Part shown: piece by piece, positions 19,131-63,954 of the stretch | Layout of the letters: each line of letters opens with the position of its first letter | Numbering within the stretch: position 1 is the first letter of the stretch | Sequence record: PZ445430.1 | Source: a phage | DNA: 64,000 bases | Reading direction: 5' to 3' (one strand) | Notes under the pieces: generated by a model | Seen by the model: only the letters and a program-made list of their open reading frames with translations | Told to the model about the DNA's origin: nothing | Database searches by the model: none | Position numbers and translations under genes: made by a program

Positions 19131-19160
19131 ATTCGAAGGCGGATGTCAACAATATTTTAC
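19131..19160 (-). promoter_or_regulatory. sigma70-type promoter for nrdD (minus strand)
   Basis: Minus strand reads TTGACA, 18 bp, TATAAT, about 40 nt upstream of the nrdD start. Confidence 0.55.
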
Positions 19161-19341
19161 TATAAAGTTCTGTAACATGATCTGAGTCAAAAAATTTTAT
19201 TTGCCAACCTCTACTAAAAATAGTATAATCACGCACCCGTGCACGCGATATAAAATGATTATCTAGTACCATACATCTCCCAATAAAAGCAAGCAAATTT
19301 TTTATTTAAATGCAATATCATAGGCTTATTTAAAATTGTAG

Positions 19342-19370
19342 TTGCTTTCTCCCGTATATATTGGTATAAT
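19342..19370 (+). promoter_or_regulatory. sigma70-type promoter for phoH
   Basis: TTGCTT, 17 bp, TATAAT. Confidence 0.6.
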
Positions 19371-19443
19371 ATATTTGTAAGTTGATAAACAAGATCTTTT
19401 TGTTGATCCTCTGTTAGCGAAGTACACTATAGGAGTGTTATTT

Positions 19444-20196
19444 ATGGGAAAAGCACGTCAAAAAAGAGAGAACCGCAATGGTTCAAGAAAGCGTGGCAAC
19501 AAGTACGAGAGTAACGTAATTCAAGCAGATTTCTCTGGTGATTACGCCAATCCAGTTGCTAAACCCCTAGTTGGTAAAAACCGTGAGCAAAAATCATATA
19601 TCAATATGATCAAGAACAACACAGTGACTGTGGGTATTGGTGAACCAGGTACTGGTAAAACCTTTATTCCATCCGTTCTTGCAGCTCAGGAACTCGTAGA
19701 CATTCACTCAGATATTGAGCAAGTGATCCTCGTGCGTCCGAACGAACCTCTAGGTAAATCTCTTGGTATGCTCCCAGGTGATCTGGCAGAAAAGCTAGAG
19801 CCTTGGTTGGAACCAATAGCCGATGGCATGAAATGGGCAATCGGTGATCACGCCTACAAAGGATATGTCGAACGTCAGAAAATTAAATTCCTGGCTATCG
19901 AACATGCCCGTGGCCGAACTTTCAACAACTCCTATGTAATTGTCGATGAAGCTCAGAATATCTCCGTTGAAGCAATGATCTGTCTCCTGACTCGTGTAGG
20001 ACAAGATTGTCGTTTAATTATCTGTGGGGATATAGCGCAGAAAGACATCAAGGGTGATTCAGGTCTAGCACTTCTTATGGAAGTCTATGAGAAGTATGAA
20101 AACTCTCCTTTCTCTATGATCGAACTGATCGACAACGTTCGCTCACCAGAGTCTAAAGCATTCTACGATATCTTTAAGGATATGGGGAAGGTGTAA
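19444..20196 (+). CDS. phoH: PhoH-like ATPase
   Basis: Walker A GIGEPGTGKTF; Walker B-like VIVDEAQN; ATG at 19444 is 8 nt after AGGAG. Confidence 0.8.
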   Translation: MGKARQKRENRNGSRKRGNKYESNVIQADFSGDYANPVAKPLVGKNREQKSYINMIKNNTVTVGIGEPGTGKTFIPSVLAAQELVDIHSDIEQVILVRPNEPLGKSLGMLPGDLAEKLEPWLEPIADGMKWAIGDHAYKGYVERQKIKFLAIEHARGRTFNNSYVIVDEAQNISVEAMICLLTRVGQDCRLIICGDIAQKDIKGDSGLALLMEVYEKYENSPFSMIELIDNVRSPESKAFYDIFKDMGKV

Positions 20197-20197
20197 T

Positions 20198-20440
20198 ATG
20201 GGAAACGTCGTACATCTGCACCGCAAAACTAAGATCCACCGTACTTCATTGAGTGCTGCTAATATGATTACACGTAAGGAAGGGGAAGAAAGTCCTAAGA
20301 CTACCCTAGCGTGGAAAATTGTAGCCTCTAATCCAAATCGGCCATTCAACTATAATGAACTGAGTACTTCTATAGACATTCTTATGGCTAAGGAAATACG
20401 ACAGAAACTAACTGATATGACCGATAAACTTAAATGGTAA
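20198..20440 (+). CDS. small hypothetical protein
   Basis: 80 aa, coupled to the phoH stop. Confidence 0.4.
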   Translation: MGNVVHLHRKTKIHRTSLSAANMITRKEGEESPKTTLAWKIVASNPNRPFNYNELSTSIDILMAKEIRQKLTDMTDKLKW

Positions 20441-20447
20441 GACAGAC

Positions 20448-20481
20448 GAGCCTGGGTATGAAAATATCCGGGCTCTTTTTA
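20448..20481 (+). terminator. putative intrinsic terminator
   Basis: Hairpin GAGCCTGG...CCGGGCTC followed by TTTTTA. Confidence 0.45.
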
Positions 20482-20496
20482 TCTGTAAAATTGTAC

Positions 20497-20525
20497 TTGC
20501 AAAATGACCCAAAACAAAGTAGAAT
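20497..20525 (+). promoter_or_regulatory. sigma70-type promoter for nrdA
   Basis: TTGCAA, 17 bp, TAGAAT. Confidence 0.5.
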
Positions 20526-22894: not shown

Positions 22895-22902
22895 TAAAAA
22901 CA

Positions 22903-22929
22903 AGGAGATCTTCGGGTCTCCTTTTTCTT
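22903..22929 (+). terminator. intrinsic terminator after nrdA
   Basis: AGGAGA-TCTTCGGG-TCTCCT hairpin then TTTTTCTTT. Confidence 0.6.
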
Positions 22930-22940
22930 TGAAATTTTAC

Positions 22941-22969
22941 TTGCTAATCGCTACCAGATTTGCTATAAT
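22941..22969 (+). promoter_or_regulatory. sigma70-type promoter for nrdB
   Basis: TTGCTA, 17 bp, TATAAT; follows the nrdA terminator. Confidence 0.6.
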
Positions 22970-23010
22970 ATTCCTGAAATAGTGAGAAATAGTGAGAAAG
23001 AGGAAAATCA

Positions 23011-24156: not shown

Positions 24157-24686
24157 TGATAGCAGCAATCTATGCAACTGGGCCGAATGGGGAGTTCGGC
24201 CTCAATGGTAAGCTCCCCTGGGGTTCTTTCAAAGAAGAACTAGATATCTTCTATGCTACATTGGATTCTCTGGCACCTGACAATATTATTGTAGGAGCAG
24301 GAACTTGGTTAGCATTCCCTGAGACTCTGCAAAAAAGAATACTAGGAGATTCTGACCTATTTATTTATGCAAATAGACCACTACCGAACTCTATAAGATC
24401 AGCTACACGCATAAGCAACATTGGATACCGTCTGCCTGATTTTCTCAAGGAAGAGGTAACTGTAGTATTAGGGGGAGCAACTCTGCTTCTTGAAATGTAT
24501 GTCAAAAATCATCTAGATATGGCGTATATCTCTACTATTACTTCAGCCACACCATTATCTGCTGATGTACATCTGCATCATCATATTACTTTAACTAATT
24601 CAATGGCAACTAGAATGGACTATGTGGCAGGACAGAATGCAGATAAAACGCTTTCATTCTTACAAGAATTGGTGATATTTAAATGA
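24156..24686 (+). CDS. dihydrofolate reductase-like protein
   Basis: 176 aa; N-terminus [21 protein letters not shown] matches the DHFR pattern; ATGA overlap with the nrdB stop. Confidence 0.65.
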
Positions 24687-25898: not shown

Positions 25899-25925
25899 AA
25901 TAGCCCTTCGGGGCTATTATATTTA
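25899..25925 (+). terminator. intrinsic terminator
   Basis: ATAGCCC-TTCG-GGGCTAT hairpin then T-rich tail. Confidence 0.55.
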
Positions 25926-25933
25926 AATTTCAT

Positions 25934-25962
25934 TTGCTTACTGAGTGAAATTCAAATATAAT
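25934..25962 (+). promoter_or_regulatory. sigma70-type promoter
   Basis: TTGCTT, 17 bp, TATAAT. Confidence 0.6.
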
Positions 25963-25992
25963 ATACTTCTAGTTTGACAGAAGGATTTAATA

Positions 25993-26573: not shown

Positions 26574-26843
26574 ATGTCTATTCTTTTATCTGCTTTAGAA
26601 GCAAAACAAAATACTATTGCTAGCATTAAAAAGGAAGTAATTGACCTAGAATCACTTATTGCCATAGAGATTGACAAAGCTATCAAAGATAAAGAATTTA
26701 ACTGTCACATCCAGGGATTAACTGAATACTCAGAAAACGCTAGAAATAGCGTCATGCAAAAACTTAGCAAACTAGGTTATGTTGTAGAAGCTAAGTATGA
26801 ACAGCGTGAAGGTTTTTGGCTTGAAATTGATTGGAGCAAATAA
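26574..26843 (+). CDS. hypothetical protein
   Basis: 89 aa. Confidence 0.45.
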   Translation: MSILLSALEAKQNTIASIKKEVIDLESLIAIEIDKAIKDKEFNCHIQGLTEYSENARNSVMQKLSKLGYVVEAKYEQREGFWLEIDWSK

Positions 26844-27319: not shown

Positions 27320-27339
27320 TAAATAATTTAAAAATTCAC

Positions 27340-27368
27340 TTGCTTAAAGCCCTCGAATTTAGTATAAT
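27340..27368 (+). promoter_or_regulatory. sigma70-type promoter
   Basis: TTGCTT, 17 bp, TATAAT; flanked by inverted repeat AAAGCCCTC / GAGGGCTTT. Confidence 0.6.
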
Positions 27369-27395
27369 ATTCGTATTGAAAGTGAGGAGGGCTTT

Positions 27396-27674: not shown

Positions 27675-27690
27675 TTTTTAAAAAATTCAT

Positions 27691-27719
27691 TTGCTAAACG
27701 CTTCAAAATTTCGTATAAT
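27691..27719 (+). promoter_or_regulatory. sigma70-type promoter
   Basis: TTGCTA, 17 bp, TATAAT with upstream A-tract. Confidence 0.6.
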
Positions 27720-27757
27720 ATATCTCATAAATTGATCAACAAAAAGGAAAACAAATA

Positions 27758-28591: not shown

Positions 28592-28804
28592 ATGCGTAAC
28601 TTCGTTGCAAAGAATGATTTTAACCGTGCTAGCACTCACAAGTCTGCTAGAGACTACACTCGTCTTTCTAAACATGAGCTTCTAGAAGAAATCATGGAAG
28701 AAAACTGGGATGTTAGTGAAAATGGAACAGACCTGTTTGAAGAAGAGGAAGTTCCTCTGAAAGACCCCAAACAGTGGGAGTCTATTAAAGAGACAGCTCT
28801 TTAA
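28592..28804 (+). CDS. small hypothetical acidic protein
   Basis: 70 aa. Confidence 0.45.
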   Translation: MRNFVAKNDFNRASTHKSARDYTRLSKHELLEEIMEENWDVSENGTDLFEEEEVPLKDPKQWESIKETAL

Positions 28805-28834: not shown

Positions 28835-29536
28835 ATGAAATTCAAGCCCTTTGGTATGCTGGACATTGAATCTCTAGGTACTCCAGGAAATTGCGGTACT
28901 ACTCATATTGCAATGCCTTCTTTCGCTTTTGTAGCGATGCACGGAATTGATAAAGATCCTGATCTGGTATTCGTTACTCTAGACGTTCAAGATCAGCTTA
29001 ATGCGGGTGCTAAGGTAACTGCCTCTACTATTGCATTCTGGATGGATCAAGCTAAAAACAGTCCATCTGCGCTCCATATTATGGAGGCTCTAAATGGTCG
29101 TAATCCTAAGCTGATTGCCTTCCGTGATGGTAAGCATCACTGCACTAATGACGTAGGCTCTAATTATGCTGCCTTCTCTATGGCTCAGAACATTATGGAA
29201 TTGTCTCTAGGAGATAATGCTCTGTATTACGGCAATGGCCCAGAGTTTGATATGACAATCTACTCTGCAAATACGTTCCATGCCGGAACCCATGAAGAAA
29301 TAGTTCCGTGGAAATTCTGGAACTTAGGTAACGTTCGATCTTTCCGTAATCAGTGGATGCAAGCTGGTTATAGCTATAAAGATCTAGAAGCCGAAGGTGC
29401 TAGCTGGGCAAAAGCTAAAATGGAAAAGATGGACACCATTCGTTATGGAATCTATCCTGTGAAGCATGATCCAGCATTCGATGCTTTAGTTGAAAGTTAT
29501 TGTGTAGCCGTCATGATCGAAAAAATCAAAATTTGA
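28835..29536 (+). CDS. putative DEDDh-type 3'-5' exonuclease
   Basis: 233 aa; Exo I-like MLDIESLGT and C-terminal H-x4-D (VKHDPAFD). Confidence 0.45.
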   Translation: MKFKPFGMLDIESLGTPGNCGTTHIAMPSFAFVAMHGIDKDPDLVFVTLDVQDQLNAGAKVTASTIAFWMDQAKNSPSALHIMEALNGRNPKLIAFRDGKHHCTNDVGSNYAAFSMAQNIMELSLGDNALYYGNGPEFDMTIYSANTFHAGTHEEIVPWKFWNLGNVRSFRNQWMQAGYSYKDLEAEGASWAKAKMEKMDTIRYGIYPVKHDPAFDALVESYCVAVMIEKIKI

Positions 29537-29537
29537 T

Positions 29538-29566
29538 TTGCTTTCAGCTCCAAAATTCTGTATAAT
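29538..29566 (+). promoter_or_regulatory. sigma70-type promoter
   Basis: TTGCTT, 17 bp, TATAAT. Confidence 0.6.
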
Positions 29567-29606
29567 ATATTCATAAATTTGAGAGAACAACAAAAGGAAA
29601 ATAATT

Positions 29607-30482: not shown

Positions 30483-30862
30483 TAATTTAAAAGACTAGTA
30501 AATCGGTAGACGAAAGCCCAAGCATCTTACCTCGCAGCAGCGGTTGAAATACGAGGTTAAATAAGACCGCTGACCATACTATAAAGTATAATCTATTGGA
30601 GATTATGTTTATTACACCAGCCTCTTAAGCTGAACTGTAAAAACGGTCGTTGGTAGTACCAACACAACTTCAAAGATCAACGCTCAAGTATGAAAGCTGA
30701 AAAGTTAAAAGAACTCAAACTTCTAACCTTCTAAAGCTAAAAGATGCAAAGTATTCGTTGATGATTCAAACCCTAGATCAAAGGTACATGGCTCATAAGA
30801 TATGGCCTGTGGCGCCTCTAGGCTGTTTATCGGTTCACTAGTCTCTCAATTTAAAAATGTAT

Positions 30863-30891
30863 TTGCTAATTAGTTTAGTTTTCTATATAAT
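30863..30891 (+). promoter_or_regulatory. sigma70-type promoter
   Basis: TTGCTA, 17 bp, TATAAT. Confidence 0.55.
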
Positions 30892-30921
30892 ATATTTTTA
30901 AATTGATGAGACGAGGCTATT

Positions 30922-31244: not shown

Positions 31245-31694
31245 ATGAAGGCAGCTTTGCTTCTAATAGCTGCCCTAACCTATAGCTTCAATAGTCATGC
31301 TACCTACGACTCAAAGCAGATTGATTGCATTGCAAAAAATATCTACTTCGAAGCACGAGGTGAGGGCACAAAGGGAATGATTGCAGTTGCACAGGTTACT
31401 AAAAACCGTGTAAACTCCGGTAAATTCCCTGATTCTTACTGTAAAGTAGTATATCAGTCTAACCAATTCAGCTGGACAGCTAAAAAACCTAGGGTTGATA
31501 AAACAGATGAGACTTGGCAAGTTGCTAAGAACTTAGCTAGAGTGATATACTACGTTGATTTACCACAAGATCCAACACAGGGGGCGTTATACTTCCATAG
31601 TGGTAAAGATAAACCGTACTGGACAAAGAAGTTTAAGAAAACAACGAAGATTCAAGGCCATACGTTCTACAAGCCTGTGGTTAAGAAAACTTAA
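31245..31694 (+). CDS. secreted cell-wall hydrolase, SleB-like domain
   Basis: Signal peptide MKAALLLIAALTYSFNSHA; blocks NIYFEARGE, VAQVTKNR, CKVVYQSNQFSW; ATG at 31245 is 8 nt after GGAG. Confidence 0.55.
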   Translation: MKAALLLIAALTYSFNSHATYDSKQIDCIAKNIYFEARGEGTKGMIAVAQVTKNRVNSGKFPDSYCKVVYQSNQFSWTAKKPRVDKTDETWQVAKNLARVIYYVDLPQDPTQGALYFHSGKDKPYWTKKFKKTTKIQGHTFYKPVVKKT

Positions 31695-31702
31695 AAATTC
31701 GA

Positions 31703-31731
31703 TTGCTTAAAGACTTAAATTTCTGTATAAT
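31703..31731 (+). promoter_or_regulatory. sigma70-type promoter
   Basis: TTGCTT, 17 bp, TATAAT. Confidence 0.6.
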
Positions 31732-31762
31732 ACTTTCATAAATTAATGAGAGGAAGCGAAAT

Positions 31763-31933: not shown

Positions 31934-32376
31934 TGGAAGAAAATATTCTAAATGTTTTGCGTAGGGCTTTGCAGGAATCTAAGATTGATGGCTCTGATAA
32001 AGAGGTAGCTAAAAGCTACCAGACCATAATCGAAGATCTTCAGCGTGTTGATAAAGACTTCATTACTTCTGAACAGTTTGTGTCTTATCTCAAAGCTCAG
32101 CTGAAAAGCATTAATCAGACGAAAGCTAAACTTCATGGTCAAGACCTTGATAATTATAGCTTGCAGTCTGCTCAGTATGAATATATACTGAACAAATGGC
32201 TACAACAGTATCTGCCGCCTCAGCTTTCTGATTCTGAGATTCGCAAATACTTTGCAGAATTAGTTACGTTGAACCCTGGGATTACGAAGAGTATGCTGAT
32301 GAAAGCGATTAAGGAAGAATTCCCTGGTCGTTATGACGGTGGCATCGCTGCTCAGGTTGCTGGCGAATTTAACTAA
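31933..32376 (+). CDS. GatB/YqeY-domain protein
   Basis: 147 aa; QYLPPQLSDSEI and C-terminal GRYDGGIAAQV match the YqeY family pattern. Confidence 0.5.
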   Translation: MEENILNVLRRALQESKIDGSDKEVAKSYQTIIEDLQRVDKDFITSEQFVSYLKAQLKSINQTKAKLHGQDLDNYSLQSAQYEYILNKWLQQYLPPQLSDSEIRKYFAELVTLNPGITKSMLMKAIKEEFPGRYDGGIAAQVAGEFN

Positions 32377-32384
32377 AAATTGAT

Positions 32385-32413
32385 TTGCTAAACGCTTCAA
32401 AATTCTGTATAAT
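32385..32413 (+). promoter_or_regulatory. sigma70-type promoter heading the ORF-free 850 nt region
   Basis: TTGCTA, 17 bp, TATAAT, then the usual CATAAATTAGAGAACAG leader but no start codon. Confidence 0.6.
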
Positions 32414-32419
32414 AGATTC

Positions 32420-33272
32420 ATAAATTAGAGAACAGCGAGCCGATTACGCTGAGTGAGTTTAGTGATTCCTACTAGGATAGCTACTCCACTGAATAGAGTC
32501 GGTGAGTTGGAGACTAGTAAGTACTCTGAGAGAGGCTACGAGCTAACGCTTATTGCTATTGATAGGGAACTGAAAATCTGCGGAAAACTCGGGAGCTGTC
32601 CCGAAATCTCGTAAACTCTTCTCTAGTTTATGTTAGTGGGGTGTCGAACTGACTTATGTGATAACACTGCCGTCCTAGTATAAACGGTAATATCAAACCG
32701 TAACTGGTGGAAGATGCAGGTTCGAATCCTGCGGTCGGAAAGAATCAGATAACTCGGGCTTATACCGGATAAGCATTCGCTGCTGTAGTACATACTATGA
32801 CGGTTCAGGAGGTACGCCTCCTGATCAGTATTAGGTTAGAATCGAAACAGCTAAACCACGAGGAAACCTGACGGCCTCAACCAAACTCGGAACTCGGGAT
32901 CACTGCCTAGTGTGTACCCCGTTTAACCTGAGACTAGGCATCCAGCTTCGCATCGAAAATCGGAGGTGCGATTCTAACAGACCGCGTGAATATGAGAGTG
33001 GGAAACGCTGACATGAGAGATGTCACTAATGGTGCCCAATAGTACAGGTAATTCGCGATAATTCCTGTTGAGCGGCAGCAGTAGGCTGGGAGTCATGACC
33101 TAAGCCTAACCGAGTTCTTCACATACGGAGAACATAACCACAAAGTCACCCTGACTTAAACTGGAAGATATTGTCTGACGGAAGGGCTGCAGAGCTTAAT
33201 CTGAGGGGGCTGACCCTACCTACCGTCGGGTATCTTTAAGAGCTTTTATAAGAGTTCTTAAAAATACCTAAA
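32420..33272 (+). ncRNA. candidate large structured non-coding RNA (about 850 nt, promoter-driven, ORF-free)
   Basis: Promoter 32385-32413; no ORF of 60 aa or more on either strand; GC-richer than flanks; many local hairpins (e.g. GGAGGTACGCCTCC, CGGGAGCTGTCCCG); ends at tRNA-Arg. Confidence 0.35.
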
Positions 33273-33347
33273 CGGGGTGTAGTCTAAGGGATAGGCAGGA
33301 GTCTTCTAAATTCCTTTATGCAGGTTCGAATCCTGTCACCTCGGCCA
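33273..33347 (+). tRNA. tRNA-Arg (anticodon TCT)
   Basis: Cloverleaf by hand: acceptor CGGGGTG/CACCTCG, anticodon loop CTTCTAA, T-arm GCAGG-TTCGAAT-CCTGT, encoded CCA. Confidence 0.75.
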
Positions 33348-34553: not shown

Positions 34554-34592
34554 AAGCCCGCGTTTCCTCCGAGAGCGCGGGCTTTTCTGTAT
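34554..34592 (+). terminator. intrinsic terminator after the SPFH gene
   Basis: AAGCCCGCG...CGCGGGCTT hairpin then TTCTGTATTT. Confidence 0.65.
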
Positions 34593-34742
34593 TTAAGGCA
34601 AAAGAAAAGCCCATAAGTTATTCAACTAAGGTCTTTAGTATTTAATTCTTTAATTCTTTAGAATCATATACTATTATTGTAGCAACAACGTGCTACCACT
34701 AAATGCCTTGAGATTTTTCCACTAAAAAGTTTAAAAATTCGA

Positions 34743-34771
34743 TTGCTTGAACGCTAAATTCTCTGTATAAT
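34743..34771 (+). promoter_or_regulatory. sigma70-type promoter for nadR-pnuC
   Basis: TTGCTT, 17 bp, TATAAT. Confidence 0.6.
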
Positions 34772-34801
34772 ATATTTATAAATTTGAGAGAGGAATCAAA
34801 T

Positions 34802-35857
34802 ATGATTAAGACTGGTCTAGTAATTGGTAAGTTCGCGCCATTAACGCGTGGTCATATTAACCTAATAAACACAGCAGCAACTATGTGTGAACGAGTTATT
34901 GTTGTAGTTAGTCATGATAATCGTTGGCTGGATAAGCAGAACACACGTGATCAGGAAGTATTACAGTTAAAGAATCGACTTCGTTGGTTAGAACAAACTT
35001 ACGCGGATATTGAGCACATTTCGGTAGAGTACATTATTGAAGATGATATTCCTGAATATCCGAATGGTTGGCCGGAATATGCTAGAATCCTTAATGAAAA
35101 TTACGGACATTTGCCTGAGATCACCGTTTTCTCTAGCGAACTAGACTATGATGCAGAATATAAGAAATATCTGCCGAAGTTTGGTCATTATATTGTAGAT
35201 TCTGATCGGACTCGTGTTCCAATCTCAGCTACAATGATTCGTAATGATCTTATGAAGTATTGGGAGTTTCTTCCTAGCGTAGTTCGTAAAGATTACGTGC
35301 GTAAGGTTGTAATCATTGGGACTGAAAGCTCGGGAAAGACTACTTTAACAAAATACCTTGCGAAGCTATACAACACTTCGTGGGTAGAAGAATATGGCCG
35401 AACGTATTGTGAAGTTGATCTAGTTGGTAACGAAAATCTACTTACCAGTGAAGATTACAGTAAAATTGCGTTCAGACACAAAGAGCTAGAGTTTGAGGCA
35501 GAACGTACTGCAAATAAGATCATGTTTGTAGACACAAATGCTTTTATTACTGAGTTCTACCACAGACTTTATGAACATCGTAAGAATCCTGTGGTTACAG
35601 CAATTGCAAAAGAAGAACATTACGATTTAGTAATTGTTCTAGCGCCTACTGTTAAGTGGGTAGATGATGGTTTACGTATTAACTCCGATCGTTCAATTAC
35701 TTCTGAACTGTTCGAGCAGATGAAGAAAGAATTTCCAAATCAGTTCCCTGAAGGGCGTACTGTTTACATCGACTCCCCGGACTACAAAGTTCGTATGGAC
35801 GAAGCAGTAAACGCAGTAGACTGGCTGATTCATCACTTTAACGTTGGAGAGTTTTAA
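34802..35857 (+). CDS. nadR: NadR-like bifunctional NMN adenylyltransferase / ribosylnicotinamide kinase
   Basis: Nucleotidyltransferase motif GKFAPLTRGH at the N-terminus; second-domain P-loop GTESSGKTTL; start at 34802 after promoter 34743-34771. Confidence 0.65.
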   Translation: MIKTGLVIGKFAPLTRGHINLINTAATMCERVIVVVSHDNRWLDKQNTRDQEVLQLKNRLRWLEQTYADIEHISVEYIIEDDIPEYPNGWPEYARILNENYGHLPEITVFSSELDYDAEYKKYLPKFGHYIVDSDRTRVPISATMIRNDLMKYWEFLPSVVRKDYVRKVVIIGTESSGKTTLTKYLAKLYNTSWVEEYGRTYCEVDLVGNENLLTSEDYSKIAFRHKELEFEAERTANKIMFVDTNAFITEFYHRLYEHRKNPVVTAIAKEEHYDLVIVLAPTVKWVDDGLRINSDRSITSELFEQMKKEFPNQFPEGRTVYIDSPDYKVRMDEAVNAVDWLIHHFNVGEF

Positions 35858-35858: not shown

Positions 35859-36536
35859 ATGACTAACTATCTTGTAAATGACTTTAAAAACTGGAAACCT
35901 TTGGAATATCTGTGGCTGTTTATAGCAGTCGCCTTTATTAGTTTAGCAAACTATAATGGTACAGCTCTAGATTGGGCTACTGCAATAACCAATGTGGTTT
36001 GTGTTATTCTGGTTGCAAAAGGACGTGTTTCCAACTATATTTGGGGCTTAGTGGGTGTTCTTACATATGGTATTACAGCTTTAAACGCAGATCTTTATGG
36101 TAACGCTGCACTAAACCTGCTATACTACGTTCCTATGCAGTTTTATGGAATGTACTTATGGCATAAAAATAAGCCAAGTAATCTGCCAGATGTTCCAACT
36201 AAGTTTCTGACTAAAGCCCAAGCTCTGCTGACTCTAGGGATTCTAGCAGTAGCCACGTTAGGGTATGGTAGTTTCTTAGCTACTACAGCTGATCCATTCC
36301 CAATGCTCGATGCATTTACTGCGGTTGGTAGTGTGATCGCTATGTGGCTTATGGTTAAGCAGTATGCCGAGCAGTGGCTGATCTGGATTGCTATTAACAT
36401 TGGTACTGTGTACATTTGGCTTGTAACTGCTCAATCTACAGGTGCATCTTATGCAATCCTAGCAATGTGGCTAGTATTCTTAGGTAACTCTATTATGGGA
36501 GCCTATAAAGGATACTTTGTACGCGTTAACAAATAA
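35859..36536 (+). CDS. pnuC: PnuC-like nicotinamide riboside transporter
   Basis: About 225 aa polytopic membrane protein, Trp/Tyr-rich helices, directly coupled to the nadR stop. Confidence 0.6.
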   Translation: MTNYLVNDFKNWKPLEYLWLFIAVAFISLANYNGTALDWATAITNVVCVILVAKGRVSNYIWGLVGVLTYGITALNADLYGNAALNLLYYVPMQFYGMYLWHKNKPSNLPDVPTKFLTKAQALLTLGILAVATLGYGSFLATTADPFPMLDAFTAVGSVIAMWLMVKQYAEQWLIWIAINIGTVYIWLVTAQSTGASYAILAMWLVFLGNSIMGAYKGYFVRVNK

Positions 36537-36570: not shown

Positions 36571-36583
36571 CAGAAATTTTCAC

Positions 36584-36612
36584 TTGCTTAATATAGAAAA
36601 TTTCTGTATAAT
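36584..36612 (+). promoter_or_regulatory. sigma70-type promoter
   Basis: TTGCTT, 17 bp, TATAAT. Confidence 0.6.
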
Positions 36613-36642
36613 ATATTTATAAATTCGAGAGAGGAATCAAAC

Positions 36643-36939
36643 ATGAAACGCATTGTACTTGCATTGACTCTAGTATCTACTTCTGTATTTGCTGCTCCGC
36701 AACAGGAACTTTGTCAAGTTCAGGTTTGTAATAAGCTAGAACGATTTACTCTAAACATTTGGTCCCATATTAAAGATAATATGGGTGAACAGTGTTTTGA
36801 TATTGTTCTGCCAAAAGAACAGGCTATTCCTGGTGCTGTTCTTAGCTCAGAATCACGTTGGTGGCAGGGTTCTTCTATCAATCCAACTAAGAAGTCAGTG
36901 ACACGTATCAAACAAGTATATCAGTGCAAGGTTCAGTAA
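36643..36939 (+). CDS. small secreted hypothetical protein
   Basis: Signal peptide MKRIVLALTLVSTSVFAAP; four Cys. Confidence 0.5.
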   Translation: MKRIVLALTLVSTSVFAAPQQELCQVQVCNKLERFTLNIWSHIKDNMGEQCFDIVLPKEQAIPGAVLSSESRWWQGSSINPTKKSVTRIKQVYQCKVQ

Positions 36940-36947
36940 AATTTCAC

Positions 36948-36976
36948 TTGCTTAATGTCGAAATTTTCTGTATAAT
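36948..36976 (+). promoter_or_regulatory. sigma70-type promoter driving a tRNA transcript
   Basis: TTGCTT, 17 bp, TATAAT; tRNA-Ser begins about 15 nt after the -10. Confidence 0.6.
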
Positions 36977-36990
36977 ATATTCATAAATTC

Positions 36991-37084
36991 GGAAGATTAA
37001 CCCTAATGGTAAGGGAGCTGTTTGCTAAACAGCCAGTAGCTGTGGAGACACGGTGTGCCAGTTCGAATCTGGCATCTTCCTCCA
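36991..37084 (+). tRNA. tRNA-Ser (anticodon GCT), class II
   Basis: Acceptor GGAAGAT/ATCTTCC, anticodon stem GCTGT/ACAGC with loop TTGCTAA, long variable arm, T-loop TTCGAAT, CCA; starts about 8 nt after promoter 36948-36976. Confidence 0.7.
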
Positions 37085-37954: not shown

Positions 37955-38153
37955 TCCTGAAATTACGGCACAACGCTTTATGCTGAAAGGAATTATTGCT
38001 GAAGCAGGCATGACAGAAGAAGTTGCAGATTTTCAAAAGCAATTCCTCAATATTCTCACTCAAGCCAAAGAGCTAGGAGAGAAAGAACATGGCGCGGCTA
38101 TTATGGCAATCACATTGGTTGGGCTTGATCTGGCTGAAGAATCAGGAGTTTAA
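37948..38153 (+). CDS. small hypothetical protein
   Basis: 68 aa from the ATG after GGAGAAAA. Confidence 0.4.
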
Positions 38154-38183
38154 CTCCTCCAAGCAGAAATTTTAAAAATGTAC

Positions 38184-38213
38184 TTGCTTTTTACTTAAGA
38201 TTTCTGCTATAAT
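38184..38213 (+). promoter_or_regulatory. sigma70-type promoter
   Basis: TTGCTT, 18 bp, TATAAT. Confidence 0.5.
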
Positions 38214-38242
38214 AGTTATATAAGTTGATGAGAGGAATCAGA

Positions 38243-38515: not shown

Positions 38516-38553
38516 TAACTGATACAGCACTGAGCAAGTTCTTTAAAATCTTA

Positions 38554-38583
38554 CTTGCTCAGTCCTTCAAAACTTGATATAAT
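38554..38583 (+). promoter_or_regulatory. sigma70-type promoter ahead of the Tyr-Glu-Trp-Phe tRNA block
   Basis: TTGCTC, 18 bp, TATAAT; the -35 sits in inverted repeat CTGAGCAAG / CTTGCTCAG. Confidence 0.45.
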
Positions 38584-38708
38584 AGTTATCTAATTTGGAA
38601 AACATATCTGAATGAGAAGTAACTAAGCGAGTTGCTTTTAGGGGTAAAGTCAGGATAGCCTGAAATATTCCACCTTGAGTTTAACCGACTTACTTTTCAT
38701 TCAAATAT

Positions 38709-38789
38709 GGGGGATTGGCTCAGTGGCGACGGCGCCTGGCTGTAGACCGGGTATATCACGCGGAGGTTCGAGTCCTCCATCTCCCACCA
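38709..38789 (+). tRNA. tRNA-Tyr (anticodon GTA)
   Basis: Acceptor GGGGGAT/ATCTCCC, anticodon stem CCTGG/CCGGG loop CTGTAGA, 10-nt variable region, T-loop TTCGAGT, CCA. Confidence 0.65.
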
Positions 38790-39050: not shown

Positions 39051-39323
39051 ATGCATCCTGAAAACTTCTTTATATACTGTACTAGTCTTTTGCTTAAACG
39101 CCGGATTAATAAAGTATATCACTACAGAGCTAGTCAACAGCCTTATGTTTATGATTCTAGTGGAGATCATATTCCACTTGAGCAACTAGGGACTGATTAT
39201 ATGGTTTTGAAGCACTTTAATGAGGCGAAGATCTCTAGCGTTCATAACCGACAAAACTCTAAAACGTGGTGGCATAAGAAGCGTAAGAAAGGCATCAAAT
39301 TTCTTAAAAATGTAGTTGCTTAA
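39051..39323 (+). CDS. hypothetical protein
   Basis: About 90 aa from the ATG after GGAG. Confidence 0.4.
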   Translation: MHPENFFIYCTSLLLKRRINKVYHYRASQQPYVYDSSGDHIPLEQLGTDYMVLKHFNEAKISSVHNRQNSKTWWHKKRKKGIKFLKNVVA

Positions 39324-44830: not shown

Positions 44831-44844
44831 AAATTTAAAAATTC

Positions 44845-44874
44845 ATTTGCCTTCTCTCTTATTTCTTGTTATAA
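44845..44874 (+). promoter_or_regulatory. sigma70-type promoter
   Basis: TTGCCT, 18 bp, TATAAT. Confidence 0.5.
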
Positions 44875-44905
44875 TATTTATATAAATTAATGAGAGGGAA
44901 ACCAA

Positions 44906-45406: not shown

Positions 45407-45483
45407 GCTTCGGTAGCTTAGCGATCTAAAGCACTCGGCTGATAACCGAGAGATCGGGGGTTTAAATCCCTCCCGGAGTACCA
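45407..45483 (+). tRNA. tRNA-Ile (anticodon GAT)
   Basis: Acceptor GCTTCGG/CCGGAGT, D-arm GCTT...AAGC, anticodon stem CTCGG/CCGAG loop CTGATAA, T-arm GGGGG-TTTAAAT-CCCTC, CCA. Confidence 0.7.
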
Positions 45484-45578
45484 AATTTAGGAAGTAAGAC
45501 TATGCGTCCAGGAAAGTTTAAAAAAGCTAATTGGTCTAAAGAGTATAAAGAATACTTACTTAGTCTAGTAAAACATAA

Positions 45579-45654: not shown

Positions 45655-45838
45655 AAAGATAAGATCAGGCCTTTGTGCCAGATCTCTGTGTTTATTAAAC
45701 TGAATGGGACTATCAATCCACAAGCCGGACTACGAGCGATTATCGGGTATTCACTTAATAAACAGCCTGCCTCCCAGTTTTTATCTTGCTTCTGGGTTAA
45801 CAAAAAGCTGAGCCAAATTCTAACATCATGGAGATCTA

Positions 45839-47286: not shown

Positions 47287-47303
47287 TTTCGTAAATAATT
47301 CAT

Positions 47304-47332
47304 TTGCTAAAACCCTCTTTTCTTGATATAAT
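47304..47332 (+). promoter_or_regulatory. sigma70-type promoter
   Basis: TTGCTA, 17 bp, TATAAT; flanked by inverted repeat AACCCTCT / AGAGGGCTT. Confidence 0.6.
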
Positions 47333-47362
47333 ATTTATATAAATTGATGAGAGGGCTTTGAA

Positions 47363-49620: not shown

Positions 49621-49633
49621 AATAAAATTTCAG

Positions 49634-49662
49634 TTGCTCAGATGCCACAAGTATTGTATAAT
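49634..49662 (+). promoter_or_regulatory. sigma70-type promoter
   Basis: TTGCTC, 17 bp, TATAAT. Confidence 0.55.
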
Positions 49663-49693
49663 ATGTTTATAGATTGAGGCAAAAGGATAATTT

Positions 49694-50798: not shown

Positions 50799-51082
50799 AA
50801 CCAGAGCCATCCCATGAGTTAAAGCAAGCTCATGTCGATTGGCCTAAAGGACTTCAGCCTTGTAGTTTTGATTTCAAATTCGAAAAGAAATTAGCTACAA
50901 ATGGTGAAGATGGCGTAGTAGTTGTTGTACCTTACAAAGATTGGAATGCAAAAGCAAAATGCGAGGAAGCAGTTTACTCTTACATTTCACGACTGACCGG
51001 TATGGTTTGCTTCTATCGTCAGGATTTACAAGAAAAACGTTGCTTAGTTTATTATCCACCCATTACAAATAGGAAAGATTAA
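50729..51082 (+). CDS. putative lipoprotein (o-spanin-like arrangement)
   Basis: 117 aa; lipobox LAAAITITGC; GTG start overlapping the 3' end of the upstream gene in another frame. Confidence 0.35.
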   Translation: MFNWKLGVLLAAAITITGCAEEIKPEPSHELKQAHVDWPKGLQPCSFDFKFEKKLATNGEDGVVVVVPYKDWNAKAKCEEAVYSYISRLTGMVCFYRQDLQEKRCLVYYPPITNRKD

Positions 51083-54161: not shown

Positions 54162-54174
54162 TATAAAAAAGTAG

Positions 54175-54203
54175 TTGACTTTCCGCTGAAATTTTTATAT
54201 AAT
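54175..54203 (+). promoter_or_regulatory. sigma70-type promoter
   Basis: TTGACT, 17 bp, TATAAT. Confidence 0.6.
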
Positions 54204-54236
54204 ATTTGTATAAATTGAATCAGAGGAGTTTCACAA

Positions 54237-54937: not shown

Positions 54938-54970
54938 AACCCAGATCTTAGCTGATCTGGGTTTTTTATT
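54938..54970 (+). terminator. intrinsic terminator
   Basis: AACCCAGATC...GATCTGGGTT then TTTTATT. Confidence 0.65.
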
Positions 54971-54972
54971 AC

Positions 54973-55001
54973 TTGCTTTCTGCTAAAAATTTTGATATAA
55001 T
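54973..55001 (+). promoter_or_regulatory. sigma70-type promoter for the Ser/Thr phosphatase gene
   Basis: TTGCTT, 17 bp, TATAAT. Confidence 0.6.
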
Positions 55002-55031
55002 ATTTATATAAATTTGAGAGAGGAATAACAA

Positions 55032-57164: not shown

Positions 57165-57266
57165 TTTTGATGGAATGACTCGTGATATAATTGTAGCAGC
57201 AGCAATAATTATCACTATTTCTTTCCTACTTGGCGTAGGAGTAGGTATTTTATTATAAAAATTCAG

Positions 57267-57295
57267 TTGCTAAAATGCTTAGTTTTCTGTATAAT
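57267..57295 (+). promoter_or_regulatory. sigma70-type promoter
   Basis: TTGCTA, 17 bp, TATAAT. Confidence 0.6.
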
Positions 57296-57325
57296 TACTT
57301 TATAAATTGATGAGAAGGAATCAAA

Positions 57326-57757: not shown

Positions 57758-57774
57758 GTAATTAAAAAATTCAG

Positions 57775-57802
57775 TTGCTTTTAGCTTTAAAATTCTGTAT
57801 AA
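57775..57802 (+). promoter_or_regulatory. sigma70-type promoter
   Basis: TTGCTT, 16 bp, TATAAT. Confidence 0.55.
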
Positions 57803-57835
57803 TAAGTTCATAAATTAATGAGAGAGGAAATTCTA

Positions 57836-61119: not shown

Positions 61120-61638
61120 ATGAGAGATAAAATAAACGAATTACTCTATGAGGAAGCACTACAATTCCCTATAAATAGATTCACTAAATCAGATGGATCT
61201 ATTAATAGAACTAAACTCAAACAACTTCATCCAGACTTCCAGCAAGATGCACTTAATCTAATCTTTATTAGAAGAGCTGTTGAAGCACATGGTAAGTTCT
61301 TTGGGTATGAAAGAGTTAAGTATAGAACGATGCAACAGCAAGTTGAGATCTATTGTCCAGATCATGATGGTTACTTCTTGCAAACTGCACGCTCTCACTT
61401 AGAAGGTCATGGTTGCCGACTATGTGCTCATAAAGTTGTGACACGCTTAACAGACTATGGAGTGTACACCGTACCGGCACCTTTCCACAAATTTGTAGTT
61501 GACGGCGAGCACATAATTTGGTATAATAAAGATCAAAAGTTAAAACAGGAGTTAAAGAAAGATGGAGTACGTAGTCTGGTCAAACCCATTAGCTCTACTC
61601 TCCCACAAACTGTTCAAGACGACGTGGGGGAGACATGA
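61120..61638 (+). CDS. hypothetical protein with Cys/His cluster
   Basis: About 172 aa; CPDHDGYF...HGCRLCAH suggests a metal-binding or nuclease-like fold. Confidence 0.4.
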   Translation: MRDKINELLYEEALQFPINRFTKSDGSINRTKLKQLHPDFQQDALNLIFIRRAVEAHGKFFGYERVKYRTMQQQVEIYCPDHDGYFLQTARSHLEGHGCRLCAHKVVTRLTDYGVYTVPAPFHKFVVDGEHIIWYNKDQKLKQELKKDGVRSLVKPISSTLPQTVQDDVGET

Positions 61639-61849
61639 GATAACTGTTAATGAGAGTCCACTTAATCATCAACATCCTTTAGTCCCGACTCTCTACAAGA
61701 TTATTATAAATGATACAGAATATTTACTAGATGATTTTGGTAAAGAGTTTGTACAAAAAGCCATAGACAACAATAACATTTCTATGGGCGAATTAATTAA
61801 TAGAGCATCTAACTTTGATAAGAGTTGGATGTTAATTTGGAGTAACTAA
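61562..61849 (+). CDS. hypothetical protein, start uncertain
   Basis: 95 aa ORF overlapping the upstream gene by 77 nt. Confidence 0.3.
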   Translation: MEYVVWSNPLALLSHKLFKTTWGRHEITVNESPLNHQHPLVPTLYKIIINDTEYLLDDFGKEFVQKAIDNNNISMGELINRASNFDKSWMLIWSN

Positions 61850-62082
61850 TGGAATATGTATTAATTATCTTAGCAATTGCATTAGTATTTGCTATTAACA
61901 CTGCTGTGCATAAGACTCGTGAAGCCAATCAGGTTATTGACGATAACGTGAAGTTGCGTAGCAAAGTTACTAATCTCAAACAACAGCGTGAAGCTCTGAA
62001 GTTATTCGTGGCTCAAGGTAGCCTAGAGCATGCACCGGAAGACTTCATTGTTTATCTTAAACGTTACATGGGAATCAAATAA
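61849..62082 (+). CDS. small membrane protein
   Basis: 77 aa; N-terminal TM. Confidence 0.4.
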   Translation: MEYVLIILAIALVFAINTAVHKTREANQVIDDNVKLRSKVTNLKQQREALKLFVAQGSLEHAPEDFIVYLKRYMGIK

Positions 62083-62267
62083 TGGAAACATTACTTCTTA
62101 TATTACTGGGCGGTTCACTCTTAACTATTCTAGGCTTGATACTGATTTGCAGTCGTCTTAATACTAAGAATCTAGAGTTAAACTGTGAGAACGAGATTCT
62201 TAACAGAGAAATTAAACAACACAATATCGCAGCTCGTAAGCTGTTAGATAAACTGGAGAATAAATAA
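62082..62267 (+). CDS. small membrane protein
   Basis: 61 aa; N-terminal TM. Confidence 0.4.
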   Translation: METLLLILLGGSLLTILGLILICSRLNTKNLELNCENEILNREIKQHNIAARKLLDKLENK

Positions 62268-62878
62268 TGTTTACACAACAAACCATTAAAGTAGTAGCAG
62301 ATCATGAACTCGACACATGGGATTACAGCTTTAAAGATCTGACTGCTACAGTACAGTTTAAATCTATGCAACTGTCGTTTTTGCACACTGATCTTCAAGG
62401 TTGCAAGGAATTTCAGGCTAAGCTTATGAATGCTCGTGCTATCTTTGGCACGGCTCGTATCCCGGCTGATAATCTGATTAATGCACTAATCGATGCTGGA
62501 TACAAACTCGTGAAGACTGAGGTGAATCGCCCTAGTACTCCAGTGACTATTCGGGATCCGTGGCAGTCGGGGCCAATCGCAATGCTGAATAATTCTGATA
62601 AAAGATTAATGTCGGATATGCACAATGTTCCTTGTGGTGGCGTGGTAAGCAATACGCAAGCATATAAGTTTGGGGAAGCATCTAGCGTAGACGAGTGGAA
62701 TAAAGCTGGCGTTGCAATGATGGGCTTTGCAAAAGATCGCGGAGCACAAGAAGACTCCGGAGTTTCTAGGAACTCATATACTATTCGTTTGAGCAATCCT
62801 AGCAAAGAAGGTGAGCTTGAAGAAATGTTAACGAAAGTATTCGAAGCTATTGATGCAGATAAGGCTAGAGGTCGTTAA
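62267..62878 (+). CDS. hypothetical protein
   Basis: 203 aa. Confidence 0.5.
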   Translation: MFTQQTIKVVADHELDTWDYSFKDLTATVQFKSMQLSFLHTDLQGCKEFQAKLMNARAIFGTARIPADNLINALIDAGYKLVKTEVNRPSTPVTIRDPWQSGPIAMLNNSDKRLMSDMHNVPCGGVVSNTQAYKFGEASSVDEWNKAGVAMMGFAKDRGAQEDSGVSRNSYTIRLSNPSKEGELEEMLTKVFEAIDADKARGR

Positions 62879-63186
62879 TGGATATAATTACTCAGTTTAC
62901 TGTAGGCCGCTGTAAGGTGGCCACACTCAATAAACATACAGTCGGAGTTAGTACATTATCTGAAAACGAATATGAACAAAAAGAAGATATGCAGTATATT
63001 CTCTTCATTGGTTCAGATGATATGAAGTTACTTAAAGACCTAGTATTTAAGTTACCTCCAAATATAAAAATAACACCTAGAAATATATCTCACTTATCTG
63101 AGCAGCTAGGGTTTACGTGGATTAAGTTAGATCCTTCAGTGAAATCAGTAACAAAAACTAAACCAAAACCGGATGATTATATATGA
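62878..63186 (+). CDS. hypothetical protein
   Basis: 102 aa. Confidence 0.45.
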   Translation: MDIITQFTVGRCKVATLNKHTVGVSTLSENEYEQKEDMQYILFIGSDDMKLLKDLVFKLPPNIKITPRNISHLSEQLGFTWIKLDPSVKSVTKTKPKPDDYI

Positions 63187-63908
63187 GTATAAAAAAGAAT
63201 TTAGCAGAGATTATTAAGTTAGCTAGAGCTTGTAATGGAAAGAATGTTTCCGAACTTAATGAGTTAGAAGCTCATGCAGTAGCATTTTGTGCAGAGTTTT
63301 ATCCAGCATATATTAATGCTAGTGGGCAACCTAAATATAATAAAGATGCAGAAGAAGTTACTCTAGCACCTTCTTATATTAGTTTACGTCGTCTGATTCA
63401 AACTGTTGATCCTACTATTAAAGGATTTTCAGCAGATTCATTCCACGTCTTTGCAGATAAAGAACTCCCGCATTTTAAAGAAGGAAATGCAAAGTCATGT
63501 TTAGAATGTTATCCTAATATTCTGATGATTCCTCAAAAGCAATGTAAATACGATCATCTCCCTAGACTTACAAAGAAAGTAGAACCACCATATTCTTCTC
63601 TATCTGAATTAAAGCTAGGAATCGTATCTACACTTGCGCAGGTTCATCTAAGTATAGTTGACGAATCAACATCATCTAACCATATTCTAGATGCTGCTCA
63701 CTTTGAAATCTTACGTGATCCTGAACAAGCTAGAAAAGTTGCAAGATCTGTTAAGTTTGATATCGAAACAATTCTTGACACTAAACAAGAAACTAGATCT
63801 AGGGGAAGTGTAGATTATTCTGCGCTAAATTCCGAGTCATCTTACCTAGCAACATTCCTTTTCATGGCATCGAAGGGAGTCATACTCAAAGTCAATCACG
63901 ATCTATAA
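63183..63908 (+). CDS. hypothetical protein
   Basis: 241 aa. Confidence 0.5.
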   Translation: MSIKKNLAEIIKLARACNGKNVSELNELEAHAVAFCAEFYPAYINASGQPKYNKDAEEVTLAPSYISLRRLIQTVDPTIKGFSADSFHVFADKELPHFKEGNAKSCLECYPNILMIPQKQCKYDHLPRLTKKVEPPYSSLSELKLGIVSTLAQVHLSIVDESTSSNHILDAAHFEILRDPEQARKVARSVKFDIETILDTKQETRSRGSVDYSALNSESSYLATFLFMASKGVILKVNHDL

Positions 63909-63925
63909 ACGTTAGCAAAATCTTC

Positions 63926-63954
63926 TTGACATTATTTGAGCTGCATGTTATAAT
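63926..63954 (+). promoter_or_regulatory. consensus sigma70 promoter at the window end
   Basis: TTGACA, 17 bp, TATAAT. Confidence 0.6.

Follow-up and report, generated by a model that had tools for sequence, protein, structure and literature searches.

The 64,000-nucleotide (nt) stretch of phage DNA analysed here (record PZ445430.1, hereafter the window) carries a family of promoter modules in which an A-tract, a -35 element TTGCTW, a 17-nt spacer and the -10 element TATAAT are followed by a short 5' leader. In our reading, which we hold with a probability of about 93%, the modules are sigma-70 promoters of the early class in a T5-like phage; each is joined to a short, standardised leader, and they have orthologs in T5. 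Over an 8-kb sample, the window matches Escherichia phage SuperGirl (MZ501105.1; T5-like, Demerecviridae, Epseptimavirus, Bas29 of the BASEL collection) at 100% identity, and a position in the SuperGirl record equals the window position plus 32480. The genome has a G+C content of 40%. In this record the window part contains early genes only, with replication genes on the minus strand up to about 19.1 kb and nucleotide-metabolism genes, a tRNA cluster, lysis genes and many small open reading frames (ORFs) on the plus strand from 19.4 kb. The coordinates given below provide a promoter map for a BASEL phage whose GenBank record annotates no promoters.

Promoter modules and their T5 counterparts

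The exact string TTGCTW-N17-TATAAT is found 22 times in the window, 19 times on the plus strand (19342 to 57803) and three times on the minus strand, while 0.05 matches are expected from dinucleotide shuffles of the window. An iterated position model of the module yields 31 copies, and a flexible-spacer scan 33 clean ones (25 on the plus strand at 19365-61522, eight on the minus strand at 2293-19126). A model of the upstream half, from the A-tract to the -10 element, finds 35 sites (27 plus, 8 minus) that exceed its cut-off, the top score among 20 dinucleotide shuffles. Every copy is co-oriented with the local genes. The model search found no leader half without a promoter half in the window. 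The original prediction spoke of more than 30 near-identical copies between 19131 and 63954. This number holds for the whole window with both strands; the stated span itself contains 25 clear and about two weak copies, and its end coordinate belongs to a separate canonical TTGACA-17-TATAAT promoter without the family features.

Chance promoter-like strings without function would be the simplest explanation in DNA of this base composition, and loose sigma-70 matches are indeed as common in shuffled sequence as in the window (51 versus 50.9 and 51 versus 53.4 in a generic TTGACA/TATAAT scan). The family statistics refute this reading. The 22 exact matches and 35 model sites, the latter against none in shuffles, the strict co-orientation with genes, the placement in intergenic gaps, a conservation above that of neutral sites and the experimentally characterised T5 orthologs (PMC7472727, PMC12464699, bioRxiv 10.1101/042432) all argue against it. 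The generic scan is unusable for counting the family because its 4-of-6 rule excludes TTGCTT. Its lack of enrichment shows that the signal is specific to this architecture, whose -35 element has only TTG in common with the canonical one. Genome-wide, 35 of 37 model matches lie inside the window, and the two others (SuperGirl record 30293 and 108981, both minus strand) likewise stand ahead of early genes. No model match falls in the late block of 24 kb or in the pre-early A1/A2 region. Several copies of the full pattern per contig are also found on viral contigs of 104-128 kb.

The similarity among the copies was overstated. Their mean pairwise identity over -60 to +25 is 53%, compared with 26% for random 85-mers, and it is distributed unevenly, with 99% in the -10 element (30 copies), 83% in the -35 element, 70% over +1 to +7, 57% in the discriminator and 40-47% in the A-tract region, the spacer and +8 to +20. 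The predicted order of A-tract, TTGCTW, 17 nt and TATAAT is borne out, followed by an AT-rich 6-nt discriminator and ATAAATT at +1. The A-tract (consensus tttAAAAaTTtA) lies just 5' of the -35 element, has a high information content and includes the A-rich -43 block AAAAATT. The -10 element is TATAAT in 34 of the 35 model matches and TACAAT in one. Beside TTGCTW, the -35 element occurs as TTGCTC, TTGCCT, TTGCAT, TTGCAG and TTGACN, and the spacer has 18 nt in two copies. The 3' end of the spacer follows the consensus aaatTTcTG. In the common CTG-TATAAT the TG is one base too near for an extended -10 element, which is not a feature of the family, a TG being flagged ahead of the -10 in only three members (22941, 44847, 47304). 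The discriminator consensus is AT(A/T)TT(Y), of the ATATTY or the ATTTAT type, with exact ATATT in about nine and ATTTAT in seven of 35 copies, nearly all without G/C runs. An AT-rich discriminator is as expected of the early class; a common ATATT discriminator is described for all T5 early promoters (Klimuk et al. 2020, PMC7472727).

The correspondence to T5 is direct. The T5 st0 record AY692264 has 32 annotated promoters across the orthologous stretch, and 23 modules lie within 6 nt of such a promoter at the syntenic position, among them partners of the experimentally defined P-N25, P-N26, P-K28a, P-H207, P-D/E33, P13b and P-F30. A 24th module was assigned to P13a by direct sequence match. 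For the segment deleted in T5 st0, modules were matched to the promoters of wild-type T5 (AY543070), with sequence matches of 40887 to P13a, 39339 to P14b, 38578 to P14a, 38208 to P15c, 34766 to P15a and 32408 to P16-17; the link of the module at 36971 to P15b is purely positional, and the module at 36607 has no clear T5 counterpart. T5 thus has the same architecture at the same genomic positions, with 100% identity for P-K28a and 78-98% for the other orthologs. Since the published consensus also agrees, the assignment to the well-known class of T5 early promoters is correct and the element was already known; the original observation was real, with its count inflated and its similarity overstated.

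The modules are listed below with the position of the -10 element. "Pattern" denotes exact TTGCTW-N17-TATAAT, "model" the upstream-half model and "flex" the flexible-spacer scan.

2262-2329, minus strand: weak member, -10 at 2293, ahead of the DNA polymerase gene; model; T5 promoter 62954-63022
6275-6341, minus strand: P-K28a ortholog, -10 at 6306, ahead of ligB; pattern, model; 100% identical over 85 nt
7450-7516, minus strand: module with -10 TACAAT at 7481, ahead of ligA; model; 95% identical to T5
8667-8733, minus strand: P-N26 ortholog, -10 at 8698; pattern, model; 92% identical
9699-9765, minus strand: P-N25 ortholog, -10 at 9730, identical from the -10 through the start codon (TATAAT AGATTC ATAAATTTGAGAGAGGAGTTTAAATATG); model
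13809-13875, minus strand: module, -10 at 13840, ahead of the D2-like primase/helicase gene; model; T5 50951-51018, 95% identical
17121-17187, minus strand: module, -10 at 17152, directly 3' of a hairpin terminator; pattern, model, T5 synteny
19095-19161, minus strand: canonical TTGACA-17-TATAAT promoter ahead of nrdD, 12/12 consensus; T5 promoter 45686-45752
19330-19396, plus strand: module, -10 at 19365, ahead of the phoH-like gene with a 67-nt leader; pattern, model, flex; T5 45431-45497, 96% identical
22929-22995, plus strand: module, -10 at 22964, ahead of nrdB; pattern, model; best T5 match 41858-41921
25922-25988, plus strand: module, -10 at 25957; pattern, model; T5 promoter 38720-38785
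27328-27394, plus strand: module, -10 at 27363; pattern, model; T5 promoter 38131-38197, 93% identical
27679-27745, plus strand: P-H207 ortholog, -10 at 27714; pattern, model; 94% identical; labelled 'P-H 207-like' in S114
29526-29592, plus strand: module, -10 at 29561; pattern, model; T5 promoter 36186-36253, 95% identical
30851-30917, plus strand: module, -10 at 30886; pattern, model; T5 promoter 34860-34927, 92% identical
31691-31757, plus strand: P-D/E33 ortholog, -10 at 31726; pattern, model, T5 synteny
32373-32439, plus strand: P16-17 ortholog, -10 at 32408 and +1 at 32420, heading RNAX, without a Shine-Dalgarno (SD) sequence; pattern, model
34731-34797, plus strand: P15a ortholog, -10 at 34766, heading genes for nicotinamide mononucleotide adenylyltransferase and PnuC; pattern, model; 67/70 identical
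36572-36638, plus strand: module, -10 at 36607, without clear T5 ortholog; pattern, model, flex
36936-37002, plus strand: positional P15b ortholog, -10 at 36971, tRNA-Ser(GCU) starting at +8; pattern, model
38172-38239, plus strand: P15c ortholog with an 18-nt spacer, -10 at 38208; flex, T5 sequence match
38543-38609, plus strand: P14a ortholog, -10 at 38578, heading the tRNA-Tyr/Glu/Phe block; model, T5 sequence match
39304-39370, plus strand: P14b ortholog, -10 at 39339; pattern, model, T5 sequence match
40852-40918, plus strand: P13a ortholog, -10 at 40887, heading tRNA-Pro/Met, tRNA-Pro at +26; pattern, model
42254-42320, plus strand: P13b ortholog, -10 at 42289, heading 257 nt of non-coding RNA and then tRNA-Ala; pattern, model
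44835-44901, plus strand: module, -10 at 44870; model; T5 promoter 28598-28665, 94% identical
47292-47358, plus strand: module, -10 at 47327; pattern, model; T5 promoter 26720-26787, 91% identical
49622-49688, plus strand: module, -10 at 49657; model; T5 promoter 24441-24508
54163-54229, plus strand: module with -35 TTGACT, -10 at 54198; model; T5 promoter 19366-19432
54961-55027, plus strand: module, -10 at 54996, heading a Ser/Thr phosphatase gene; pattern, model
57255-57321, plus strand: P-F30 ortholog, -10 at 57290; pattern, model, T5 synteny
57763-57829, plus strand: module, -10 at 57798; pattern, model; T5 promoter 16243-16310, 98% identical
61487-61553, plus strand: weaker member with -35 TTGACG, -10 at 61522, within the end of the preceding coding sequence (CDS); model, flex; T5 13210-13278

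Several places on this map deserve a remark. The nrdD promoter at 19095-19161 has a marginal family score, a weak A-tract and no ATAAATT. In the nrdD-phoH gap (19121-19249) it forms a divergent pair with a plus-strand TTGCCA-17-TATAAT promoter, which stands in tandem with the 19365 module, 140 nt 5' of it, and carries a GC-rich palindrome ATCACGCACCCGTGCACGCGAT at its start region, unlike the AT-rich discriminator of the family. On the plus strand at 20497-20525, just 3' of a strong terminator (20448-20475), a promoter-like TTGCAA-17-TAGAAT that has an A-tract overlaps the start codon annotated for nrdA (20504); one of the two calls, promoter or start codon, is doubtful. Between the 13840 module and the D2-like gene, at 13339-13828 on the minus strand, 370-490 nt contain no credible ORF; this stretch shares 93% identity with T5, forms a better fold than shuffled sequence (z = -2.8) and could be a long structured 5' untranslated region, a non-coding RNA or an origin-related region. 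In both T5 and S114 an extra small gene lies between the 54996-type leader and the phosphatase gene. The perfect canonical promoter at 63927-63955 on the plus strand has no family A-tract, TTGCTW or ATAAATT. It lies just 3' of the last early gene and faces DNA without a plus-strand gene, on the side homologous to the T5 injection-stop region, and it is conserved out to Klebsiella T5-like phages.

Inheritance of the modules and their two-part leader

In 24 SuperGirl-T5 ortholog pairs the identity is 99% in the -10 element, 97% in the -35 element, 93% over +1 to +7 (p = 7e-5), 90% in the discriminator, 87% over +8 to +20, 86% in the UP region and 84% in the spacer; third codon positions and the upstream flank, for comparison, reach 82% and 74%. 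As judged from these alignments, the modules are under purifying selection. The syntenic T5 partner of a module is 78-100% identical to it and any paralog 55-73%, the ortholog being closer in 18 of 18 cases. Therefore, the copies were inherited individually and their similarity is kept by function, not by gene conversion; concerted evolution among them is ruled out by the same comparison.

The modules could in principle act mainly as portable recombination cassettes like the promoter-stem-loop (PeSL) cassettes of T4-type phages, with exchange shuffling the early genes and maintaining the similarity. Homology breakpoints against T5 or S114 are in fact observed at module edges or just past the leader, at 22971, 36999, 38607, 40908, 42311 and 55033 on the plus strand and at 8737, 9761 and 17130 on the minus strand. 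HNH genes adjoin some modules, and others follow directly on terminator hairpins. The P15a ortholog heads different genes in the two phages, NadR/PnuC-like genes for salvage of nicotinamide adenine dinucleotide in SuperGirl and the unrelated T5.076 in T5, with the swap exactly at the end of the retained leader. Counted by eye in two genomes, however, modules account for 5 of the 15 breakpoints against S114 and for about 8 of the 27 against T5, where about 22% are expected because a fifth of the gene junctions carry a module, and the closer T5 partner in all 18 comparisons is contrary to homogenisation. We regard such cassettes as very unlikely. A PeSL-like recombination hotspot is not favoured, since ends of high-scoring segment pairs against S114 and T5 lie at modules only about as often as expected.

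Homing-endonuclease genes are found beside several modules. In the window such a gene (9760-10332, minus strand) lies 5' of the P-N25 ortholog, and homology with most relatives begins exactly at the module edge, at about 9764. The T5 record has an HNH gene (41331-41855) inserted between promoter 41858-41921 and nrdB, and in S114 a homing-endonuclease gene (18331-18609) lies between a P15b-type promoter and tRNA-Ser.

T5 P-N25, for which ApU serves as primer on ...TATAATAGATTCATAAATTTGAGAGAGGAG (bioRxiv 10.1101/042432), was the model for setting the start site to the seventh base after the -10 element. Because N25 starts with ApU, +1 is placed at the first A of ATAAATT. Of 35 copies, 19 match this block at 7/7 positions and 25 at 6/7 or more; among 37 exact ATAAATT strings in the window, 18 are located exactly at a predicted +1. 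The block is followed by (T)GAGAGAGGA or GATGAGAGG and then ATG, so that actual leaders read ATATTY-ATAAATT(T)GAGAGAGGAA or ATTTAT-ATAAATTGATGAGAGG. The leader string originally quoted, ATATTCATAAATTGAGAGAGGAA, has no match in the window with up to three mismatches. It is a hand-made consensus, from which the actual leaders are offset by a 1-nt indel, and the first six bases of what had been called the initial transcribed sequence are the untranscribed discriminator. The discriminator subtype (ATTTAT/ATATTY) and the leader subtype (GATGAGAGG/TGAGAGAGG) combine at about 5:2 versus 1:4, counted by eye on few cases.

As originally described, modules head protein genes, tRNA blocks (36971, 38578, 40887, 42289) and an ORF-free stretch (32408), and this variety allows the leader to be dissected. 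In the 22 CDS-heading modules the distance from +1 to the start codon, always ATG, is 21-35 nt, mostly 21-28 with a mode of 24, and GAGAGG is placed at a fixed 5-8 nt 5' of the ATG. Compared with the other 96 CDS, the module-headed genes have stronger SD pairing (p = 0.03) and less structured start regions (p = 0.01). Of the 22 CDS-heading modules, 19 have an SD-like motif, versus one of the five RNA-heading modules (36971, 40887, 38578, 42289 and 32408; p = 0.009). Most of these five keep ATAAATT or a near variant and have lost the SD sequence, and in the sole one with an SD-like motif, the motif is buried in a 5' hairpin. At the P13a site T5 has a small CDS with an SD sequence; neither is found in SuperGirl.

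From this comparison of sequences we conclude that the discriminator and +1 to +7 are part of the promoter and that +8 to +18 form the ribosome-binding site. The assignment of +1 to +7 follows from its conservation and from its retention ahead of RNA genes where the SD sequence is lost, and it agrees with the published finding, made purely in vitro, that the initial transcribed sequence of N25 affects promoter escape (PMC12464699). The earlier statement that the leader supplies the ribosome-binding site is therefore correct for about +8 to +18 and does not extend to +1 to +7. The division of the leader into a promoter-intrinsic and a ribosome-binding part is new here, as are the individual inheritance of the copies and the confinement of the family to early regions.

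If the conserved transcribed part were a translation signal only, that is, a ribosome-binding site with an enhancer and without a promoter role, the fixed position of GAGAGG, the narrow range of distances from +1 to ATG and the favourable SD pairing and open start regions would all be explained. Such a signal would not account for ATAAATT ahead of tRNAs and RNAX, nor for the higher ortholog identity over +1 to +7 than over +8 to +20. Moreover, published in vitro work, in which translation plays no part, found an effect of the N25 initial transcribed sequence of about 10-fold on productive initiation (PMC12464699). We consider an exclusive role in translation improbable. A sigma-70-dependent pause caused by the -10-like TAAATT (+2 to +7) was also considered and set aside; the literature found uses N25anti merely as a donor of the initial transcribed sequence.

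A different reason for the conservation of the transcribed part, compatible with the identity of the modules as promoters, would be that the discriminator and +1 to +7 constitute a class-specific regulatory address, by which a phage factor switches the early units off together. The factor might be the ortholog of the RNA polymerase-binding protein gpT5.026 or another repressor or nuclease, and the address could be read on the DNA or on the RNA 5' end. The block is early-specific, persists in RNA-heading units, for which a ribosome-binding site is unnecessary, and is under purifying selection. In T5, gpT5.026 weakens the contact of RNA polymerase with the discriminator, early transcripts rise in its mutant, and early and late promoters differ mainly in the discriminator (Klimuk 2020, PMC7472727). 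Set against this, the in vitro effect of gpT5.026 is at most two-fold (PMC7472727), the N25 initial transcribed sequence acts on escape intrinsically with pure RNA polymerase and no phage factor (PMC12464699), the discriminator is only loosely conserved among paralogs, and the block lacks operator-like symmetry. Overall, an address appears rather unlikely. The more specific proposal, that ATATTY/ATTTAT-ATAAATT is a tag through which a gpT5.026-type or other factor silences about 35 units at the early-to-late switch, and that RNAX may join in the takeover, is less likely again.

We thus prefer the reading as early-class sigma-70 promoters with a standardised leader, for which the following mechanism can be proposed by analogy with the T5 literature. 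The host RNA polymerase holoenzyme would bind through the UP-like A-tract (AAAAATT, about -45 to -38) and the TTG of TTGCTW, with the optimal 17-bp spacer and the perfect TATAAT completing the binding. The AT-rich discriminator (ATATTY/ATTTAT) and the A-start ATAAATT may control open-complex properties and promoter escape, as for N25, where initiation is escape-limited and modulated by the initial transcribed sequence (PMC12464699). In protein-gene units the purine-rich SD sequence GAGAGG within +8 to +18, set at a constant distance from the ATG near +25, and the short unstructured leader would give efficient translation, and units for tRNAs and non-coding RNAs would retain the promoter-intrinsic part alone. 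With about one promoter per 1.8 kb and few terminators, overlapping nested early transcripts would be produced and host promoters outcompeted.

The plus strand has one module per about 1.8 kb, with about five features per module. Some modules lie directly 3' of terminator hairpins (22902-22923 ahead of the 22964 module, 54938-54963 ahead of 54996, 57223-57245, and the bidirectional 34554-34584, 5' of 34766). Many others start within 20 nt of the previous stop codon. Because many promoters abut the previous gene without a terminator, early transcripts are nested, and the predicted modular transcription programme does not hold in the strict sense.

Four considerations weigh against the preferred reading. 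The copies at 61522, 2293, 19126 and 20520 are weak or atypical. Several modules lie within or abut the upstream CDS without a terminator, which leaves the concept of a unit loose. Start sites, strength and timing in SuperGirl are carried over from T5. In T5 itself, in vivo primer extension gave products from 11 of 19 promoters defined in vitro (PMC7472727), so that not every copy need be active. Searches of the literature available here on genome-wide start-site mapping of T5-like phages and on RNAX returned nothing relevant.

RNAX and the other RNA-heading units

The region without ORFs at 32420 is orthologous to RNAX of T5. It extends over 32420-33272 on the plus strand, starts from the 32408 module and is followed by tRNA-Arg (33273-33347). 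In wild-type T5 the region 3' of P16-17 is annotated as 'rnaX: stable RNA with unknown functions', with 719 nt, and is likewise followed by tRNA-Arg. The alignment of the two RNAX sequences has four conserved blocks, namely the promoter with +1 to +12, a tRNA-like element, a 174-nt core and the pre-tRNA-Arg leader. The tRNA-like element (32669-32740) scores 29.3 bits for Rfam RF00005 against a threshold of 29, has two mismatched acceptor pairs and is called by ARAGORN at relaxed settings only. A compensatory change in its T-stem relative to T5 suggests that the tRNA-like fold is kept.

The core (32997-33170) has no Rfam match and was detected in 438 records of T5-like phages, none of which annotates it. 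RNAalifold on a seven-sequence alignment predicts 41 pairs in seven helices, with 93% of cells paired compared with 84% in shuffles. Compensatory double changes are found in 16 pairs, against 7.6 +- 1.6 in shuffles (0 of 500 reaching the observed value) and 1-3 with slid partners. The fold of the core is supported by covariation. The SuperGirl CDS bas29_0079 and bas29_0080 are probably spurious calls that overlie RNAX as a conserved structured RNA.

The P13b-type transcript (42301-42557, plus strand) places 257 nt ahead of tRNA-Ala and corresponds to 'RNA2H' in the T5 annotation. It contains a perfect 8-bp hairpin GATGAGGA-GAAA-TCCTCATC at +8 to +27 (listed as 42306-42329), in which an SD-like GAGGAG is sequestered. 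ARAGORN identifies 27 tRNAs in the window. Two further tRNA-Ser genes of the SuperGirl record (43213-43305 and 43320-43414, both plus strand) are missed by default ARAGORN and at the Rfam gathering threshold and are seen only with relaxed ARAGORN settings. An Rfam search of the whole window and of the ORF-free stretch gave nothing except tRNAs.

Relation to known promoter systems

The early promoters of T4 and the PeSL cassettes of T4-type phages likewise represent a large family of strong sigma-70 promoters with upstream A-tracts and conservation well beyond the hexamers. Some have a terminator hairpin 5' of the promoter, and they occur at the borders of variable gene cassettes. They differ from the promoters of SuperGirl in the -35 region, and among the SuperGirl copies there is no clear excess of breakpoints, as counted by eye, and no significant homogenisation. 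In contrast to T4, we know of no ADP-ribosylation-linked control for this promoter family. Promoters of the Escherichia coli rrnB P1 type with UP elements likewise have an A/T-rich block 5' of the -35 element, where the alpha C-terminal domains bind. The discriminator of rrnB P1 is GC-rich, whereas that of the modules is AT-rich, and the -10 element and spacer of SuperGirl are at consensus; regulation of the stringent-control type would therefore not be expected.

Textbooks have covered the early promoters of T5 since the 1980s, and the promoters reportedly go back to Gentz and Bujard in 1985. P-N25, whose ortholog lies here at 9699-9765 on the minus strand, is the 'T5 promoter' of the pQE/pDS vectors and the model system for abortive initiation and promoter escape, and the existence of the family adds little by itself. 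In the pQE/pDS versions, both the spacer and the initial transcribed sequence contain lac operators, and the ribosome-binding site is synthetic. At about 14944-15000 of the SuperGirl record, the sole TTGnnn-N17-TATAAT of the late block is followed by ATTAAGAGGAGAAATTAACTATG. This sequence is nearly identical to 'RBSII' of these vectors, which suggests that RBSII was derived from a T5 late gene.

T5 belongs to Tequintavirus and SuperGirl to Epseptimavirus, and some of the genes downstream of the shared promoters differ. Further parallels are found in the close relative S114, a Salmonella phage, whose record already labels many modules ('P-H 207-like', 'P13a-like' and others), and in the sister phage AKFV33, for which 32 'T5-like' promoters were described with TTGCTw, 17-18 nt, TATAATA, AAAAATT at -43 and TAAATT at +1 (Niu et al. 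2012, PMC3326045). The promoter/ribosome-binding split, the ortholog-versus-paralog test and the selection test go beyond the descriptions of these two phages. With AKFV33, SuperGirl shares the same consensus and a similar copy number.

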